Below, one piece after another: positions 47,019-61,060 of a stretch of DNA of 64,000 bases (the stretch's first letter is position 1; each line of letters begins with the position of its first letter). The stretch comes from Candidatus Peregrinibacteria bacterium (GTDB lineage: Bacteria; Patescibacteriota; Gracilibacteria; UBA1369). Made by a program: the position numbers and the translations under genes. The DNA lies in the NCBI GenBank assembly GCA_963708185.1, contig OY970195.1:320001-384000 (forward strand). The letters run 5' to 3'. The notes beneath the pieces were generated by a model, which was not told where the DNA came from, searched no databases, and saw only the letters and a program-made list of their open reading frames with translations.

Positions 47019-47318
47019 TTAGTGGTGTGCAGCTGCAGCAGATGCATGGGTTGCCCCGTGTGCATCATGGTTTTCGGTGTGAGCTCCGTGCGCTTCGGTA
47101 CCGTGCCCATGTGCTCCATGGTCGTCATTGCTGAAGAGCCCTTTCAAGACGTCCTTGAAGAATCCGGTTGCGGTTTTGTAGAGTTTTCCGATGGCGATGC
47201 GGACGCTGTCGATGATTTTGCCGACGCCCTCGCCGAGCGTTTCCAGAACACTTTCAGAATTGTGACCTGCTTCCACGGCTTCGTGGCTGTGAGCGGTTTC
47301 AGAATGGGATGCTGACAT
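47019..47318 (-). CDS. Small His-rich protein
   Basis: MSASHSETAHSHE... with C-terminal HGAHGHGTEAHGAH...HH; lies downstream of tRNA-Leu. Confidence 0.6.
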   Translation of the reverse strand: MSASHSETAHSHEAVEAGHNSESVLETLGEGVGKIIDSVRIAIGKLYKTATGFFKDVLKGLFSNDDHGAHGHGTEAHGAHTENHDAHGATHASAAAAHH

Positions 47319-47498: not shown

Positions 47499-48089
47499 TT
47501 ATTTCAAGGAGAAGGATTTTACAATCGCCTGAACGACGTTAATATTGTCCGTTGTTTCTTTGGGCGAGTATGAGCCTGTGACGATGTAGGCGTAATTTCC
47601 TTTTACCGCGTACGTCTGGTAAAAAACAAGAAGGTCACTTTGTGCATCTTTTTTTCCTTCAAAGGTTTCTATATAGGTGTCGACGTCCTTTCCTGCGATT
47701 TTTACTTTCACGAGATCCTGTTTGTCTTCTTTGTAGTTGACGAGTCCGGTCTTCTGGCGATTAATGACCTCTTTTGCGTATTCGAGGGACTCAACGCTGT
47801 TCTGGATCGTTCTGCGGATGACGTTCACATTGGCCGTGAAGGTATCATTTTTTACGTTGTTGCGAACGACCAGTGCTGTTTCGGGGGGAACGTCGCTCGT
47901 AAAATTTTTTGATTCGATGACATCCCATTCTCGCGGAATTGTAAGGTTGAATTCGGGGTTATCGATAATCCTGGATTGGTTGTTCGTCGTCGCGTTCTGT
48001 TGGTTTGTTGAACCTCCGCATCCTGCAAGTGCCAGGACAGAGAATGTAATCAATGAGATTTGAAGGAGTTTTTTTGTGGTGGTTTTCAT
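47499..48089 (-). CDS. Lipoprotein, possibly PsbP/DcrB-like fold
   Basis: Lipobox LAGC, F.LTIP.EW, ANVNV and AIVKSF motifs. Confidence 0.75.
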   Translation of the reverse strand: MKTTTKKLLQISLITFSVLALAGCGGSTNQQNATTNNQSRIIDNPEFNLTIPREWDVIESKNFTSDVPPETALVVRNNVKNDTFTANVNVIRRTIQNSVESLEYAKEVINRQKTGLVNYKEDKQDLVKVKIAGKDVDTYIETFEGKKDAQSDLLVFYQTYAVKGNYAYIVTGSYSPKETTDNINVVQAIVKSFSLK

Positions 48090-48191
48090 AGTGATCAAGA
48101 GGAAACACGCTTATTTTACTGGACTTTGCGCCCCGCTACAAATTTTTTGTGATCTTCCATAGATAAAGTCGTTGCGGAAAATTTGGAAGGA

Positions 48192-48219
48192 TTGACAAAA
48201 ATAAAATTCATCCTAAGAT
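48192..48219 (+). promoter_or_regulatory. Putative sigma70 promoter upstream of the structured element
   Basis: TTGACA-16 nt-TAAGAT. Confidence 0.45.
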
Positions 48220-48300
48220 GTTTGTTACTTTTTCGGGATTGAAGAAAAGTTTTCTGTTTATCAGCGGAAATGCTTATCTTTACCTGAAAAAGCGATATTT

Positions 48301-48697
48301 GGCAGCAAGGCAGGAGAGAGGTGTCCATGAGTTTGCCTTCAAGCATGCGTCCTCCGTCCAGCAGGAGGAAAGACCAGCTGGTGGATGAGCGTTTTCGTGA
48401 GTGGGAAGCTCGACAGAAGGCCGCTGGAAATCAGCCTGCAAAGCCTTCGTCTGCTCCCGCACGTGATGACAAGGCTCATCAGGGTCTCGACTTCGACGAC
48501 CGTGAAGAGCAGGGAGTCGATGGTGACGGGAAAGGGAAGTAGTCCAACGACCCCGACCCTCACGTTTGATCAACACTTTCAAGGAGGTGTCTCCCCGGAA
48601 TCGATGTCATGAAGTAGGTACGGAGCCGGAGAGGTAGGAACGCGCAGGACGCGTTCCGCCTCTCCGGCTACCGCCGACACTCCACTGTCTTGCTGCC
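48301..48697 (+). ncRNA. Unidentified structured RNA (or structured mRNA) with paired 5'/3' termini
   Basis: GGCAGCAAGGCAG (48301) pairs with CTGTCTTGCTGCC (48685-48697) with one G-U. Several internal hairpins; GC-rich between AT-rich flanks. Confidence 0.55.
48327..48542 (+). CDS. Possible small hydrophilic protein embedded in the structured element
   Basis: SD-like GGAGAGAGG before GTG/ATG; 71 aa, rich in D/E/K/R/S. Confidence 0.35.
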   Translation: MSLPSSMRPPSSRRKDQLVDERFREWEARQKAAGNQPAKPSSAPARDDKAHQGLDFDDREEQGVDGDGKGK

Positions 48698-48797
48698 CTA
48701 TCCTTTTTAACTCAATTGTCATGAAATCATCGTTCATGTCTTTTGCATTGTCCAAAAATCTTCTATTATACCTTTGTTATTTTTTGTTTTTTGGTTT

Positions 48798-49766
48798 ATG
48801 AAACAAGTCCAAGTAGGGATTCTTGATTTCAGTAGTCTCAGCAGGCTTCGATCGGCACGCACCGCTGCCAGTTCGACCCCGCGCGAAGTGAAACTTCTCA
48901 AAAATACCGCCATCAAGCTGGGGCATATCGCCAAGATTTATAAGGTGGAAAACTGCCAGCTTTATTTCGACAACCGTAAACCGCTTATTCTTTATAAGAA
49001 CAAACCTATTAAAGGTTGCGATGTTCTGATTCCTCGAGTTTCCGTCGCCGGAGATATCGATCTGGAAATTTCCATCGTCAAACAGTTCAAGATGCTCGGT
49101 ATTCCCGTGGTGAACGATTATCTCCCCACGGTCCGCGCGAAGAATAAATTAAGGACATTGCAGATTTTAACGCACAGGGGAATTCCTGTGCCAAGAACCC
49201 TTGTGGTTCGTAAATTGGAATTTTTAGATGAAGGCATTCAGAAAGTTGGAGGCTATCCGGTCATCATTAAATCTCCCTTCGGTTCTTACGGGGTGGGGGT
49301 TGCCATTACGGAAAGCCGCAGATCGTTATATTCCTCACTGGATATGGTCTGGAAAACGACTTCCTCAAGTATCATTCTTATCCAGGAGTACGTTGCTGAA
49401 GCTGAAGGAAGCGATTTTCGGGCTTTCGTCATCGGAGGAAAAGTCGTTGCTTCGATGCAGCGTAAGGCTGTGCAGGGTGATTTCCGTTCGAACCTTCATC
49501 ACGGCGGTGAAGCCGTGAAAGTGAAACTCAGCACCGAGGAACAGAATCTCGCCATAAGGGCTGCTGAGGCTTTGGGGCTGGATCTTGCGGGAGTCGATCT
49601 CTTACGGACGAGAAAAGGTCCGGTGGTCATGGAGGTGAACGCCAATCCGGGTTTTGAGGGGTTGATGAAAATTACCGGGGTCGACATTGCGACGGAAATG
49701 GTGAAGTACGCCGTCTCGCTCTACAGGAAACAGCAGGAAGCCATCAAAAAGAAAAAGCGGTCCTGA
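48798..49766 (+). CDS. rimK: RimK-family alpha-L-glutamate ligase (ATP-grasp)
   Basis: NKLRTLQ, GIPVPRT, GSYGVGV, IQEY, DFRSNLHHGG and EVNANPG motifs. Confidence 0.88.
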   Translation: MKQVQVGILDFSSLSRLRSARTAASSTPREVKLLKNTAIKLGHIAKIYKVENCQLYFDNRKPLILYKNKPIKGCDVLIPRVSVAGDIDLEISIVKQFKMLGIPVVNDYLPTVRAKNKLRTLQILTHRGIPVPRTLVVRKLEFLDEGIQKVGGYPVIIKSPFGSYGVGVAITESRRSLYSSLDMVWKTTSSSIILIQEYVAEAEGSDFRAFVIGGKVVASMQRKAVQGDFRSNLHHGGEAVKVKLSTEEQNLAIRAAEALGLDLAGVDLLRTRKGPVVMEVNANPGFEGLMKITGVDIATEMVKYAVSLYRKQQEAIKKKKRS

Positions 49767-52253: not shown

Positions 52254-53756
<1,503 letters not shown>

Positions 53757-54055
53757 TAGGAGATATCAGGGAACTTAGGGATTTTTATTTCTAAGCATTT
53801 TCCAGGTCGACCCTCGCTTCGGCGAGGTTTCTAGATCTCTCTCTACTACATTTTGGATGTTAAAGGTACAACCTTTCTTCTTTTCTCTCCTTTATAGGGG
53901 TATGAAATCTTCCAATAGTTTCAACAGGTCGAGTCAAAACATTGAGGTTTCGGTCCGAGCGCACAGCGCGAGGGCGTAAGCTGTGGCTTTGCTACACGCT
54001 GAAGCGTATCGATAGAAGAAAAACCTTATTTTTCAATTTTAACCCTCTCACACAC

Positions 54056-54325
54056 ATGGAAACTCAACAACTCACCTGCCAGGATTGTGGCAACACTTTT
54101 GATTTCACTGCAGAAGAACAACAGTTTTTTGCAGAAAAAGGATTTCAGGAACCAAAGCGCTGCCCTAATTGCCGAAAAGCAAAAAAGGAAGCTCATCGTC
54201 CTACCTTTACGAAGGTAACCTGTTCTGGCTGTGGGATGGAAACCGAGGTCCCGTTCGTACCAAAAGGCGACCGTCCGGTTTACTGCCGTGCTTGTTTTGA
54301 AAAGAACAAAGCAATGTCTGCGTAA
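54056..54325 (+). CDS. Zinc-ribbon protein (zf-trcl + CxxC-x17-CxxC domains)
   Basis: CQDC..FDFT.EEQ.FF...GF..PKRCPNC and CSGC...VPF.P...RPVYCRAC motifs. Confidence 0.88.
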   Translation: METQQLTCQDCGNTFDFTAEEQQFFAEKGFQEPKRCPNCRKAKKEAHRPTFTKVTCSGCGMETEVPFVPKGDRPVYCRACFEKNKAMSA

Positions 54326-54344
54326 TTACTGTTTAGGTAATTTG

Positions 54345-54377
54345 GAAGAGGATGTCTGGAAAGACATCCTCTTTTTT
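54345..54377 (+). terminator. Intrinsic terminator
   Basis: GAAGAGGATGTC-TGGAAA-GACATCCTCTT followed by a T run. Confidence 0.8.
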
Positions 54378-54389
54378 GTAGAAATTCGT

Positions 54390-54417
54390 TTGCAAATTCC
54401 GCGGCTTTCTTTATAAT
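54390..54417 (+). promoter_or_regulatory. Putative promoter for tRNA-Ala/Ile
   Basis: TTGCAA-16 nt-TATAAT. Confidence 0.55.
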
Positions 54418-54522
54418 GATCGAGCTGTTTTGACAGTCAGGCTTTGCAAGTCGTCAATGGCTTGCAGGAGCGCAAAGATGTGGGCCCTTAGCACAAGCTA
54501 AGGTCCCACCGTTTACACTCGT

Positions 54523-54599
54523 GGGCCCTTAGCTCAGTTGGCCAGAGCGCCTCGTTTGCACCGAGGAGGTCAAGGGTTCGACTCCCTTAGGGTCCACCA
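54523..54599 (+). tRNA. tRNA-Ala(TGC)
   Basis: Cloverleaf with G3-U70, anticodon loop TTTGCAC, encoded CCA. Confidence 0.96.
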
Positions 54600-54608
54600 G
54601 AATATTGC

Positions 54609-54685
54609 GGGCGAGTAGCTCAGTTGGTTAGAGCGCGTCACTGATAATGACGAGGTCGGAGGTTCAAATCCTCCCCCGCCCACCA
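54609..54685 (+). tRNA. tRNA-Ile(GAT)
   Basis: Cloverleaf, anticodon loop CTGATAA, encoded CCA; one A-C mismatch in the acceptor stem. Confidence 0.95.
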
Positions 54686-54689
54686 TGAT

Positions 54690-54711
54690 AGAGTTCCCGG
54701 GACTCTTTTTT
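54690..54711 (+). terminator. Possible terminator after tRNA-Ile
   Basis: AGAGTTC-CCG-GGACTCT followed by a T run. Confidence 0.5.
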
Positions 54712-54754
54712 GTTTAATGCCTGATCCGGTTTCTGTTACAATGGCTACGATTTA

Positions 54755-55357
54755 ATGTTTTTTATGTCAGGAGAGCTGCTTGCCGCCATCGTTTTTGATC
54801 TTATCCTCTATGGAACTCTGGCTTGTGCGGCCATCCCTCTGCTGTTTTTTTTGTTGTGGACATTTTTCAACTTTTGGAAAAAATACTATCTTCTTTTTTA
54901 TTTTACGGGCATCGTTCTTTTGGCCGCGATTCCTACTGCTTTTTATTTTACGCAGCATTACTGGATTTATCTCTACTATCCTTTCCCCGCATGGGTGCAA
55001 ATCATCGGGCTGATACTTATTATTTTCAGTTATCTTGTCGTGAAACTGGCCCAGGCCTCCATCAGTGTTCCCGTTCGTTTCTTTTTTCCGGTTCTTAAAA
55101 ATCACCCCATTCAATTAAAGACGAAAGGCGTGTATCGATACGTCAGACACCCCATTTATGCGGTGTTTCCTTTGATTGTTATTGGTGGACTTTTGTATAC
55201 CGGCGAGCTGGTGCTTTTCCCGGTTTTCTTCCTGGTCCTTGTGACGAGGAAATGGTATGCCGTCAGGGAAGAGGCGTACCTCAAGCAAAACCTTCACGGT
55301 GACTATGAAAAATATATGAAACAGACTCCCAACCGTTTTTATCCTAAAATTTTTTAA
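54755..55357 (+). CDS. Isoprenylcysteine carboxyl methyltransferase / PEMT-family membrane protein
   Basis: Multiple TMs; L.T.GVYRYVRHPIY, EEAYL and Y..YM..TP.RF motifs. Confidence 0.8.
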   Translation: MFFMSGELLAAIVFDLILYGTLACAAIPLLFFLLWTFFNFWKKYYLLFYFTGIVLLAAIPTAFYFTQHYWIYLYYPFPAWVQIIGLILIIFSYLVVKLAQASISVPVRFFFPVLKNHPIQLKTKGVYRYVRHPIYAVFPLIVIGGLLYTGELVLFPVFFLVLVTRKWYAVREEAYLKQNLHGDYEKYMKQTPNRFYPKIF

Positions 55358-55359
55358 GT

Positions 55360-56190
55360 ATGATTTTTTATGCTCTCCATGTTCCGGGTGTTGAAGACGA
55401 AAGACTTGAACTGCTTCGTGCCGCCTGCAAACGTTTGAAGATTTCTTTCAGGGCGTTGTCGCCGTCCGGATTCGATTTTTCCAGGCCTTCCCCCGTGAGA
55501 AAAGGCGACATTGTCTATAGAATCAGCCGAGGTAAACTGCTTCGGTTTTTTGAGGATTACATCGTCAGGCCCGGTTGTATCACGTTTTATCAAGACGTCA
55601 TTTTCCATAAACCGGATCCATTTTTTCTTGAGAAGCATGACATTCCTGTTCCAAAAACCGTTTTTTGTCTCACCAGAGAGAAGAAGCTTTTGATGAACTA
55701 CGTGAAGGAGATCGGGGGATTCCCGGTCATTCTCAAAGCCTTGGGTGGAACGCACGGAATGGGGGTCATCAAAATTGACTCTTTTTCAGCGCTCAAAAGT
55801 ATGGCGGATTTTTTGTTAGCCCAGGGGAAATTGTTTGTGCTTAAACAGTTTTTACCCGTAAAGACTTCCGCACGTTTTATCGTTCTCGGGGATAAAGTCG
55901 TTGCCTCGATTGAATACGTCGCTCGGGACAATGACTTCCGGACGAATTCAGCCAAAACGCTCACTGTCCGTCCAAAAAAATATTCAAAAGCCCTTGAAGA
56001 ACTGGCGGTCAGAGCCACACACGCCATGGGTTGGGAGTTCGGTGGGGTTGATATTCTCATTCATAAAGGTAAACCTTACGTTTCCGAAGTGAATTTTCCC
56101 TGCAATTTTGTACGGGCTCAAAATGCCCTCAATAAGGACGTCGCTCTCCTTATGGTTCAATATCTTCAGGCAAAAGCGAAAAAACTTTAA
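55360..56190 (+). CDS. Divergent RimK-like ATP-grasp protein
   Basis: IPVPKT, FPVILK..GGTHGMGV, DFRTN, FGGVD and SEVN motifs. Confidence 0.8.
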   Translation: MIFYALHVPGVEDERLELLRAACKRLKISFRALSPSGFDFSRPSPVRKGDIVYRISRGKLLRFFEDYIVRPGCITFYQDVIFHKPDPFFLEKHDIPVPKTVFCLTREKKLLMNYVKEIGGFPVILKALGGTHGMGVIKIDSFSALKSMADFLLAQGKLFVLKQFLPVKTSARFIVLGDKVVASIEYVARDNDFRTNSAKTLTVRPKKYSKALEELAVRATHAMGWEFGGVDILIHKGKPYVSEVNFPCNFVRAQNALNKDVALLMVQYLQAKAKKL

Positions 56191-57287
56191 AGCAGGTCTC
56201 GGGTTATTTTGTCGATGATAAGGAATCCTTCATCGGTCGGACTCAGGAATCGTCCGTCCAAAACAAGTTCTTTGCTTTCTAGATAGGGTTGCGCCTTTTT
56301 GAGCAATTCGGATGTTTTTTTGAATCTCTTTTTGAATTCGGACGTGTCGATACCGCGTTTTGTTCGCAAACGAAGCATGATGTAATCGAGTTCACGCAGT
56401 TCAGCGTCCATGGGAACCTCTTCGTTCATATCGTCGGGGGTCGACAAATACCGGTCGAAGTCCCTCGTGTTTTCGGTACATTTGTCATTGATATAGGAGT
56501 GTGCGCCGATGCCGAGCCCAACGTACTCTTTTTGGCTCCAGTATCTTAAATTATGTTGGCATTCATAGCCGGGTTTTGCGTAGTTCGAAACTTCATAATG
56601 GTTGTATCCTGCTTTTCTTAAACGCGTGACAAGGTGTTCGTACATGGCGACCTGTACGTCGTCGTTGGGGCAGTCCGCTTTGAAAAGATCGATCTTTTTC
56701 GTGTCATAGGACAAGAAATAAAAAGAAAGGTGGGGGATATTGAGATCGAGGATTGTTGAGAGCTGGGTCTTGAAGTGTTGGAGCGTCTGGTGGGGGAGTC
56801 CGAGGATGAAGTCCGCACCGTAATTTTTCATGGGGGAACTGCGGATGGCATCAAGGGCTTTGAAGATGGTTTTGTCATCATGCGGACGGGCGATGCGGAA
56901 AAGAATTTTTTTGTCGAAATTCTGGATGCCGAGGGAGACGCGGGTTACTCCAGCTTGGTGATAGATCCTAAGTTTTTTTTCGTCGATGCTTTCCGGGTTG
57001 CATTCAATGGAGATTTCCGGTTTTTTTTGTATGTTAAAGCTGTGCCTGATGCATTGAAGGATATCCTCGATATAATGAGCTTCGATCAAACTCGGCGTTC
57101 CGCCACCGAAGTACAAGGTTTCGACCTGGTAATCCCGGAGTTCTTTAGACTTCAGCCCTATCTCTTTTTTGAGCGCTTCGACGTAATCAGGTATGAATTT
57201 GTTTTTATGGGCGAACGTCAGGAAATTACAATAGAGACAGATTGTTTTGCAAAAGGGGATATGGATGTAGAGAGAAAGGTCTTTCAT
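56187..57287 (-). CDS. hemW: Radical SAM HemN/HemW-family protein
   Basis: LYIHIPFCKTICLYC, FGGGTPS, YEVSNYA and HNLRYW motifs. Confidence 0.88.
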   Translation of the reverse strand: MKDLSLYIHIPFCKTICLYCNFLTFAHKNKFIPDYVEALKKEIGLKSKELRDYQVETLYFGGGTPSLIEAHYIEDILQCIRHSFNIQKKPEISIECNPESIDEKKLRIYHQAGVTRVSLGIQNFDKKILFRIARPHDDKTIFKALDAIRSSPMKNYGADFILGLPHQTLQHFKTQLSTILDLNIPHLSFYFLSYDTKKIDLFKADCPNDDVQVAMYEHLVTRLRKAGYNHYEVSNYAKPGYECQHNLRYWSQKEYVGLGIGAHSYINDKCTENTRDFDRYLSTPDDMNEEVPMDAELRELDYIMLRLRTKRGIDTSEFKKRFKKTSELLKKAQPYLESKELVLDGRFLSPTDEGFLIIDKITRDLL

Positions 57288-57354
57288 GGTTGGTTCGATT
57301 GGATTGAAGCCGTTTTTATGCTATAATGATAGAAAGTTAACACACCTTCATAAT

Positions 57355-57606
57355 ATGGATCGTATTTTTGCAGCAGTCATCGGGATTCCCCTGGGGTTCC
57401 TCATGATGATCTACAGGTATCACCTTAAACAGTTTACAGGTCCTATTCAATGGGCAGAACAATATTTGGGGTCCGGAGGAACCTATAATCTTTTCATCAT
57501 TGTCGGTTTGTTGATTTCGATCGTTTCACTCATGTACGCTTTGGGTACGATTCAGGATCTTTTTACCAGCGGATTGGGTCCTATTTTCGGTGTCGGACAG
57601 AGCTAA
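57355..57606 (+). CDS. Small membrane protein
   Basis: Two hydrophobic segments around WAEQYLGSGGTY; TGcTATAAT promoter upstream. Confidence 0.7.
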   Translation: MDRIFAAVIGIPLGFLMMIYRYHLKQFTGPIQWAEQYLGSGGTYNLFIIVGLLISIVSLMYALGTIQDLFTSGLGPIFGVGQS

Positions 57607-57637
57607 AACCCTTCAGGAGAATTTCGTTAAAAATTTC

Positions 57638-57666
57638 TTGACTTCAGGTGACTGCTTACTTATAAT
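57638..57666 (+). promoter_or_regulatory. 23S-5S rRNA promoter
   Basis: TTGACT-17 nt-TATAAT; boxA-like TGTTCTTTAACA at 57806-57817. Confidence 0.7.
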
Positions 57667-57946
57667 GCAGTGGCCTCAATTTGAGATTGAGATTTACTGA
57701 ATGGTTTTTACCTCACAAATTTCGCCCATATCCCTAAGCTTAAAGTGCTGATTTCACTTGGTCAGGACTTTGAGTTGAGGGGTGTGTGCGAACACATCCC
57801 TTTTTTGTTCTTTAACAATTGGGCCTCAAAAGAATGATTGATAAATCAATCTGTAATTTCATTTGAGAGTTATTCAATAAACAATAGTATCATACTCAAT
57901 ATTAGCTGCGAGTATTCACTCACAGCTAGTTAAATGGATGATATCA

Positions 57947-61060
<3,114 letters not shown>

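Follow-up and report, generated by a model that had tools for sequence, protein, structure and literature searches.

A probable folded mRNA for a lineage-restricted hydrophilic protein in a Candidatus Peregrinibacteria bacterium

A strongly folding, GC-rich island between a lipoprotein gene and rimK in a Candidatus Peregrinibacteria bacterium raises the question of whether its product is a structured RNA or a protein. The island lies in a stretch of 64,000 nucleotides (nt) of contig OY970195.1 (assembly GCA_963708185.1), hereafter called the window, in which a first-pass annotation made from the letters alone had delimited an element at 48301-48697 and had proposed either a novel large non-coding RNA (ncRNA) or an mRNA whose ribosome-binding site is locked by pairing between its 5' and 3' regions. 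Our analysis indicates that the element is probably the heavily folded mRNA of a lineage-restricted, hydrophilic protein of 71 amino acids (aa), with conserved structures in its untranslated regions (UTRs) and a control logic resembling that of type I toxin mRNAs. The small open reading frame (ORF), its translation signals, the 5' and 3' structures and the helix joining the ends are all conserved, the unit as a whole is accessory, and its folded ends may control the timing of protein production.

The genome from which the window derives (G000) comprises 1,437,033 bp in one contig and is 99% complete. A genome of the same genus (G004) carries a second DNA copy of the unit, at the identical place and in the same orientation, between the lipoprotein gene and rimK. 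The description of a GC-rich island in an AT-rich spacer was accurate, the GC content being 0.575-0.595 across 48300-48699 compared with 0.345 in the preceding 200 nt and 0.40-0.44 downstream.

The reading frame and its protein family

An ATG at 48327, with the Shine-Dalgarno (SD) region GAGAGAGGTG (48314-48323, plus strand) just before it, starts a frame of 71 codons that ends at 48542 (48327-48542, plus strand; protein P0001). This frame, inside which hairpins listed in the first-pass annotation fall, was not reported there. When the two genomes are aligned, the promoter hexamers, TTTGGCAGCAAGGCAG, the SD and start region AGGTGT.CATGA and the stop codon are all seen to be kept. The gaps between G000 and G004 are all multiples of three within the ORF (3, 3, 3 and 12 nt), as against 8, 12, 1, 1 and 19 nt outside it.

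A DNA search of 60 relatives gave one homolog, the G004 locus, with about 200 nt at 69% identity and a second piece, and the encoded proteins (P0001 and P0002) are 35-38% identical. A profile built from these two proteins added just P0003 (77 aa, E 4.7e-14) and P0004 (83 aa, E 5.3e-05) when run against 1,835,955,588 representative proteins, and a word-indexed search of 5.77 billion clusters returned the same four proteins and none further, each as a nameless singleton cluster. The collection of homologs recommended in the first-pass annotation gave the G004 locus and two metagenome proteins (P0003 and P0004), with no others across the searched relatives.

The four proteins (71, 76, 77 and 83 aa) keep one frame open at 38-55% amino-acid identity, and share an N-terminal motif, PPS.R..Q[LM].[DE].R[IF].EW[QE].R, a Pro/Ala/Ser-rich linker of variable length and a C-terminal motif, [DE]F[DG][DE][RS]E. 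AlphaFold2, run on the four-protein alignment, predicted a single helix at residues 11-32 (predicted local distance difference test values of 76-86 for the block) with low confidence for the remainder, and the conserved residues Q17, R22, E25, W26 and R29 are spaced as one face of this helix. P0001 would accordingly consist of a basic amphipathic helix followed by an acidic, disordered tail. The grand average of hydropathy (GRAVY) ranges from -0.97 to -1.54 in the family and the most hydrophobic 19-aa Kyte-Doolittle window does not exceed 0.36, with no membrane segment, so the product is hydrophilic; the family has no known relatives.

In a six-frame test on the pairwise alignment, the ORF frame was the best of the six, with the highest amino-acid identity (0.38), the lowest ratio of non-synonymous to synonymous differences (pN/pS 0.60) and no stops in either species. 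Third-position GC is nearly the same in the ORF (0.53) and in rimK (0.54), and the difference lies at codon positions 1 and 2 (0.68 and 0.49 in the ORF vs 0.54 and 0.37 in rimK). This excess at the first two positions indicates that the GC island largely reflects a protein rich in Ala, Gly, Pro, Arg, Asp and Glu, not foreign DNA.

Conserved structures around the reading frame

The promoter-like site noted in the first-pass annotation is present at 48192-48219 (plus strand; TTGACA, 16 nt, TAAGAT), matches at 10 of 12 positions and has a counterpart at the same place in G004 (TTGACA-16-TAGACT), where the pairwise alignment shows the hexamers kept amid diverged flanks. Nine nt past the -10 hexamer starts a 5'-terminal leader hairpin (48228-48292, plus strand), which folds with a z of -5.3 in the window and -3.5 in G004, none of 200 shuffles being as good in either case; of the 20 pairs in its consensus, 8 are changed on both sides, 6 on one side and none is broken. 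This hairpin places the likely start of the transcript about 75 nt upstream of 48301, where the element had originally been taken to begin.

As regards folding of the whole element, the comparison with dinucleotide-shuffled controls that had been suggested as a check gave -190.5 kcal/mol for the plus strand against -144.5 +/- 6.1 for the shuffles (z -7.6; 0 of 100 shuffles as good). The minus strand gave a z of -6.2 (again 0 of 100) and the G004 element a z of -5.55. To locate the conserved part of this structure, the two elements were aligned, the ORF by codons and the UTRs anchored on identical blocks, and RNAalifold energies were compared with those of column shuffles that keep conservation. 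The consensus fold reached a z of -7.6 for the whole element (0 of 100 shuffles as good) and -6.7 for the 3' UTR (0 of 200), as opposed to -2.0 for the ORF (9 of 200). Folding of the ORF as a single sequence gave a z of -3.25, as compared with -0.3 to -3.1 for equally long windows of rimK. Since the ORF lies near the rimK range and its consensus is matched by 9 of 200 shuffles, its internal hairpins are not clearly beyond what a GC-rich ORF gives. Of the internal hairpins proposed earlier, the near-perfect one at 48624-48669 is present; the others lie inside the ORF. Conserved RNA structure is concentrated in the untranslated parts, outside the ORF.

The termini of the originally delimited element pair as had been claimed, with one G-U pair favouring a plus-strand RNA. 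This end-joining helix, H1, consists of 13 pairs, one of them G-U, between its 5' arm (48301-48313, plus strand) and its 3' arm (48685-48697, plus strand). In G004, 12 pairs are invariant and one changes from G-C in the window to G-U; one pair is G-U in both genomes. The G-U pairs would be A-C mismatches on the opposite strand, which indicates that the RNA is on the plus strand. A helix of the length of H1 with at most one G-U occurred in 2 of 300 mononucleotide shuffles of 48226-48715.

Inside H1, the 3' UTR contains two further helices. The first of these, H2, has as its 5' strand a look-alike of an SD sequence with the conserved block TTCAAGGAGGTG (48578-48591, plus strand; H2 part 48583-48591), a 12-mer of which is identical in G004, and as its 3' strand the anti-SD-like GACACTCCAC (CACUCC; 48676-48685, plus strand), in which the 8-mer CACTCCAC is identical in G004. 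In the window GGAGGUGUC (48583-48591) pairs with GACACUCC (48676-48683), and in G004 GGAGGUGAAUC pairs with GAUUCACUCC, with a matched 2-bp insertion on both strands. The second, H3, is a long hairpin at 48617-48675 (plus strand; core 48625-48668, loop 48645-48649) with 23 pairs, 4 of them changed on both sides, 1 on one side and none broken; all of its cells were paired, compared with 33-51% when the partner strand was slid as a control.

Two claims that had been made about the SD look-alike proved correct: GAGGTGTC does occur twice, at 48318 and 48584, and AAGGAGGTG (48581-48589) is perfectly complementary to the 16S end ...CACCTCCTT of this genome. No conserved ORF follows the look-alike: 14 nt past it the window has only AUG-UCA-UGA, and a start codon is missing at that place in G004; the look-alike is consequently read as an RNA-pairing element and not as a second ribosome-binding site.

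A T run at 48704-48708 (plus strand), likewise reported in the first-pass annotation, begins 6 nt beyond H1 (35 nt beyond H3) and is a possible 3' end, TCCTTTTT being kept in G004. In our best reading, the lipoprotein gene and rimK, with their divergent promoters, would flank a transcription unit that is complete in itself, occurs once and extends from 48192 to about 48712, its predicted transcript running from about 48226 to just beyond 48697.

Possible translational control and the likeness to type I toxin mRNAs

In the minimum-energy folds of both species the SD of the ORF is paired with sequence adjoining the 3' arm of H1, the partner being GACACUCC (48676-48683) in the window and AUCUUUU plus ACGCC in G004. 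In the window, the segment 48676-48683 thus has two alternative partners, the SD of the ORF in the minimum-energy fold and the SD look-alike in the consensus fold. A two-state switch, in which either copy of GAGGTGTC would pair with GACACTCC, had been suggested in the first-pass annotation. The arrangement of one GACACUCC for two GAGGUGUC copies is found in the window only, and the switch is not conserved, G004 accommodating both helices together with different 3' partners. Locking of the SD by 3' pairing is plausible in these models but partial, and its details are not conserved.

Where the transcript begins and ends, whether its translation is locked and whether the product is toxic are matters of inference, and the following mechanism is proposed on that footing. 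H1 would tie the region just 5' of the SD to the 3' end, with H2 enclosing H3 in the 3' UTR, and the closed, end-paired mRNA together with its 5' hairpin would shield both ends from nucleases. The anti-SD-like CACUCC beside H1 would restrict ribosome access in the finished RNA, in which the SD would be partly hidden. The finished transcript would in that case be stable and poorly translated until opened, either by 3' trimming, by an antisense RNA from a convergent promoter-like site (see below) or by melting. In models with the 3' part cut off, the probability that the SD is unpaired rises from 0.42 to 0.60 in the window (45 nt removed) and from 0.27 to 0.68 in G004 (80 nt removed).

It should be underlined that several points weigh against reading the element in this way. 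The starting values just given mean that occlusion of the SD is partial in the ensemble of both species, the SD has a different 3' partner in each species, and H1 would not lie at the very start of the RNA should the conserved promoter be the one in use. A scan of 48050-48850 for a canonical intrinsic terminator (a G+C-rich hairpin with a T run within 0-2 nt) gave 0 sites. Only two DNA sequences represent the unit, so that covariation statistics have almost no power: in the shuffle control the observed value was reached in 28 of 500 cases, which is near the floor for four swappable pairs with two rows. Because this control is nearly powerless with two sequences, the structural claim rests on the zero broken pairs and on the slid-partner control. 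The pairwise signal of purifying selection on the protein is weak to modest, with pN 0.43 and pS 0.71 in the ORF and pN 0.10 and pS 0.77 in rimK of the same pair, and synonymous sites are saturated. Pfam, NCBIfam and PADLOC offered no lead to the function of the protein, nor did PHROGs (single match, E 0.069), the PDB (single match, E 1.4) or the ESM Atlas (best score 0.76). Finally, transcription and translation of the unit are predictions from its sequence.

The suggestion that the element is an mRNA with its ribosome-binding site locked by 5'-3' pairing, as in type I toxin mRNAs, is supported as regards the architecture only, in that H1 is conserved and the minimum-energy folds of both species pair the SD with 3' sequence. 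Weighing against it are the partial predicted occlusion and the protein, which is hydrophilic and 71-83 aa long, unlike typical type I toxins.

Two published accounts describe type I toxin mRNAs as marked by stem-loops at the 5' end, by anti-SD sequences and by long-distance interactions between the 5' and 3' regions (PMC6733600, PMC8594479), and the latter account gives 20-60 aa as the size of the toxins. The unit resembles hok/Sok of E. coli plasmids and aapA/IsoA of Helicobacter pylori in being short, monocistronic and accessory and in having a 5' stem-loop, a helix that joins the 5' and 3' regions (here H1, by prediction and conservation) and an anti-SD near the 3' end that is able to pair with the SD. 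As a further parallel to type I systems, it has a candidate promoter for a convergent antisense RNA. Type I toxins are usually hydrophobic membrane peptides, unlike the product here, which is strongly hydrophilic, has no membrane segment and at 71-83 aa exceeds their size range. The predicted SD occlusion is also only partial, unlike in these two systems, and no sequence similarity of its proteins to any known family was found. As the protein departs in size and hydropathy from type I toxins, we describe the unit as working like a type I toxin mRNA and do not file it as a member of that class. An RNA-controlled small gene can nevertheless encode a soluble protein, as is the case for SymE and RalR of E. 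coli, which are soluble type I toxins that target nucleic acids and are not membrane peptides. The four proteins studied here differ from these two in lacking any Pfam, NCBIfam or PADLOC match and in being predicted to form a single helix with a disordered tail.

The convergent promoter-like site, a candidate start of an antisense RNA, is located at 48726-48754 on the minus strand (TGGACA, 17 nt, GATGAT; 9 of 12 positions). G004 has TTGGGA, 17 nt, TACAAT at the equivalent position, and in both genomes the site lies 20-30 nt past the 3' end of the unit. The site could yield an antisense RNA over the 3' domain; it also overlaps the rimK promoter and so may mean nothing. Seen as a whole, 48726-48769 holds overlapping, back-to-back promoter-like sites, one on the plus strand for rimK and one on the minus strand directed toward the 3' end of the small-protein unit.

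This site is relevant to the more specific version of our explanation, namely that the unit is a true type I toxin-antitoxin system, with a toxic protein, an inert end-paired mRNA activated by 3' trimming and an antisense RNA from 48754-48726 that neutralises it. The mRNA architecture agrees with the descriptors quoted from those accounts (5' stem-loop, SD/anti-SD and 5'-3' interaction; PMC8594479, PMC6733600), an opposite-strand promoter-like site is in place in both genomes, and the unit is patchy and accessory, occurring in two of the four genus genomes with the locus. Nevertheless we hold a true toxin-antitoxin system to be unlikely. The length of the proteins, their GRAVY values and their lack of a membrane segment disagree with the published toxins, the antisense promoter may be a by-product of AT-rich sequence given its overlap with the conserved rimK promoter, and our reading of both sequences shows no conserved terminator for the antisense RNA. 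In addition, models of the nascent transcript leave the SD about half accessible, and the module occurs once in the genome, searches of phages and plasmids having given no relatives. Equally tentative is the idea of an RNA-gated, type-I-style module that arose within one genus and combines an end-paired silent mRNA, a decoy SD/anti-SD pair in the 3' UTR and convergent antisense RNA with a new soluble toxin or regulator.

If the preferred explanation, a folded mRNA of a small hydrophilic protein, is true, an orphan gene only about a genus old already has an elaborate conserved mRNA architecture, in which a cap hairpin at the 5' end and paired ends are combined with an SD look-alike that is sequestered. 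Translational control by end pairing, until now encountered chiefly among the type I toxins of Proteobacteria and Epsilonproteobacteria, would then extend to a hydrophilic protein in an uncultured lineage with reduced genomes, offering a compact system for how such control evolves alongside a new gene. For genome scans there is a caution, in that strongly folding GC-rich intergenic islands can be mRNAs of small proteins and not ncRNAs.

The reverse case is that RNA is the main product, in the form of a large structured ncRNA or a dual-function RNA, with an ORF that is incidental or held open by the GC-rich composition. This would agree with the strong whole-element folding in both species (z -7.6 and -5.55), with the z of the ORF alone at the edge of the rimK range, with a pN/pS of only 0.60, with antisense frames that are largely open too, and with an SD look-alike in the 3' UTR that has no conserved ORF and hints at a role at the RNA level. 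The large orphan structured ncRNAs in Rfam (RNase P, tmRNA, SRP, 6S and long candidate motifs) are comparable as well in having about 400-490 nt with paired ends and in being GC-rich in an AT-rich spacer with very negative folding z. The element differs from them, however, in that the core of the unit is a conserved ORF, that Rfam 15 has no match to it and that it is missing from sister species, the last of which means that it is not a housekeeping RNA. We therefore regard an ncRNA as improbable and do not retain the earlier proposal of a novel one: four sequences at 38-55% identity keep one frame, with in-frame indels and terminal motifs that flank a variable linker; SD, ATG and stop are conserved, with the right spacing between SD and ATG; and within the ORF the consensus structure does not stand out clearly from chance (9 of 200 shuffles as good), the structure being mainly outside it.

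The search of Rfam with cmscan, which had also been recommended, identified no known family at the element. Rfam 15 at gathering score gave nothing over 48100-48850, its matches in the window being limited to rRNA and tRNA, and at E<=10 only chance matches of microRNA models (8-22 bits) to the long hairpin were obtained. The first-pass annotation had found no signatures of RNase P, transfer-messenger RNA (tmRNA) or signal recognition particle (SRP) RNA. RNase P RNA was ruled out, as cmscan has no match at the element and the genome has its own copy (G000:C1:185828-186179, 175.6 bits); GGAGGAAAGACC at about 48362 had been considered because it resembles the P4 region, and was rejected. The same applies to tmRNA, which is located at C1:1209539-1209952 (123.6 bits) and which ARAGORN does not find in the window. 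The 5' arm GCAGCAAGGCAG, which resembles domain IV of 4.5S RNA, was also rejected, and SRP RNA was ruled out by the absence of a cmscan match, the wrong strand order and the missing element in sister genomes.

As a separate observation, the SRP models RF00169 and RF01854 detected no bacterial SRP RNA in the 99%-complete G000 genome, and RF00169 matched 0 of 21 genomes of the order (G000, G001-G012 and G036-G043), while control genomes do match. A possible reason is that SRP RNA has diverged in this lineage beyond the reach of the Rfam models or filters. Nor was 6S RNA (RF00013) found in the G000 genome.

Distribution of the unit and its neighbourhood

A four-genome alignment of the lipoprotein-rimK spacer shows that a segment at about 48152-48712 (plus strand) is shared by G000 and G004 and absent from G002 (100% complete, one contig) and G003. 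The latter two have the tRNA-Leu, the lipoprotein gene and rimK with a spacer of only about 130 nt, and what they lack comprises the ORF with its promoter and leader, the 3' domain and the T run. On one side of the break is the conserved block upstream of the lipoprotein gene, which we read from the alignment as the probable promoter of that gene, and on the other is the conserved rimK promoter. The unit is thus present in two of the four genus genomes in which the locus is assembled, and it was absent from the outgroup genera G029 and G010. RimK of G000 is the most distant of the four (83-85% identity vs 91-93% among the other three), and the RimK tree leaves the branching order within the genus unresolved. 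If the RimK distances reflect species relationships, the unit predates the split of G000 and G004 and was lost in G002 and G003.

Wider searches did not extend this distribution. The protein profile had 0 matches in the three genomes G001, G002 and G003, and among 400 other genomes of the class it matched G004 only, along with two weak matches that contain in-frame stops (E 0.007 and 0.008) and were taken as chance. A covariance model of the 3' domain retrieved only its two training sequences from 101 genomes, and a pattern search for related loci gave 0 confirmed of 182 in genome contigs, 0 of 593 in metagenome contigs and 0 of 264 in viral contigs. A DNA pattern taken from H3 occurred in 8 stretches of metagenomes and 15 of genomes, and nhmmer confirmed just one of these 23, namely the G004 locus. 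No match was obtained by tblastn against phages and plasmids, and literature searches on Peregrinibacteria and the candidate phyla radiation gave no printed description of the unit.

The position of the unit suggests a possible tie to rimK, either as a long, read-through regulatory leader or as the gene of a substrate, carrier or regulator of the RimK-family glutamate ligase. In both G000 and G004 it precedes rimK by about 260 nt in the same orientation, the downstream protein does belong to the RimK family (TIGR00768 234.9 bits, cut-off 143.4; PF08443 E 2.6e-55), and the tail of the small protein is acidic. In this respect the unit is similar to LysW-type carriers and S6, which are small acidic-tailed proteins encoded beside a RimK-family ATP-grasp gene. 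S6 and LysW are modified at a C-terminal Glu, a residue that is not conserved here, as the four proteins end in GKGK, EEGE, EEGK and GKGK, that is, three in Lys and only one in Glu; they also lack a zinc-ribbon, and most rimK-bearing relatives lack the gene. Furthermore, rimK keeps a conserved promoter of its own downstream of the unit (TTTGCA-16-TATTAT, 48742-48769), which recurs at the equivalent position in G004. The small gene was found by DNA or covariance-model searches in 0 of 20 other rimK-bearing genomes of the family, 9 of which were also sampled with the protein profile and gave nothing, and G002 and G003 carry the same rimK without the unit. A functional link to rimK is therefore highly improbable.

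That the unit is a mobile-element relic, such as a miniature inverted-repeat transposable element (MITE)-like insertion bounded by a 13-bp inverted repeat, can scarcely be entertained, even though its ends do form such a repeat and the whole segment is an indel relative to the sister genomes: it occurs once in 1,437,033 bp with no other match better than E 0.3, and a single copy argues against a repeated mobile element, as MITEs have several copies with terminal inverted repeats; the indel of about 560 nt differs from the repeat in its boundaries, extending about 150 nt to the left to include promoter and leader; the G-U pairs of the helix fit RNA pairing and not DNA repeats; the same site in two genomes, 69% identical across the unit, fits vertical descent; and no transposase gene is nearby.

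Apart from the unit, three features of the surroundings deserve mention. Two rimK paralogs in tandem, about 50-55% identical to RimK of the window, are found in many genomes of the family (loci L024, L026, L027, L031-L034 and L036-L038), and the genus of the window has a single rimK. Just past the tRNA-Leu, at 47019-47300 (minus strand), the window encodes a small His/Ala-rich protein (...SHSETAHSHEAVEAGH... HGAHGHGTEAHGAHTENHDAHGATH...), which is conserved in G004 (L010 2906-3208, plus strand) and may bind metal. Lastly, the rRNA operon is interrupted: 16S ends at 53755 and is followed by tRNA-Ala and tRNA-Ile (54523-54685), with 23S beginning only at 57947. The region between 16S and 23S (53756-57946) includes a gap of about 3.2 kb with ORFs of 200 aa (54755-55357, plus strand), 276 aa (55360-56190, plus strand) and 366 aa (56187-57287, minus strand). 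The 23S match spans 3116 nt against a model of 2925 positions, indicating that the 23S gene carries insertions.

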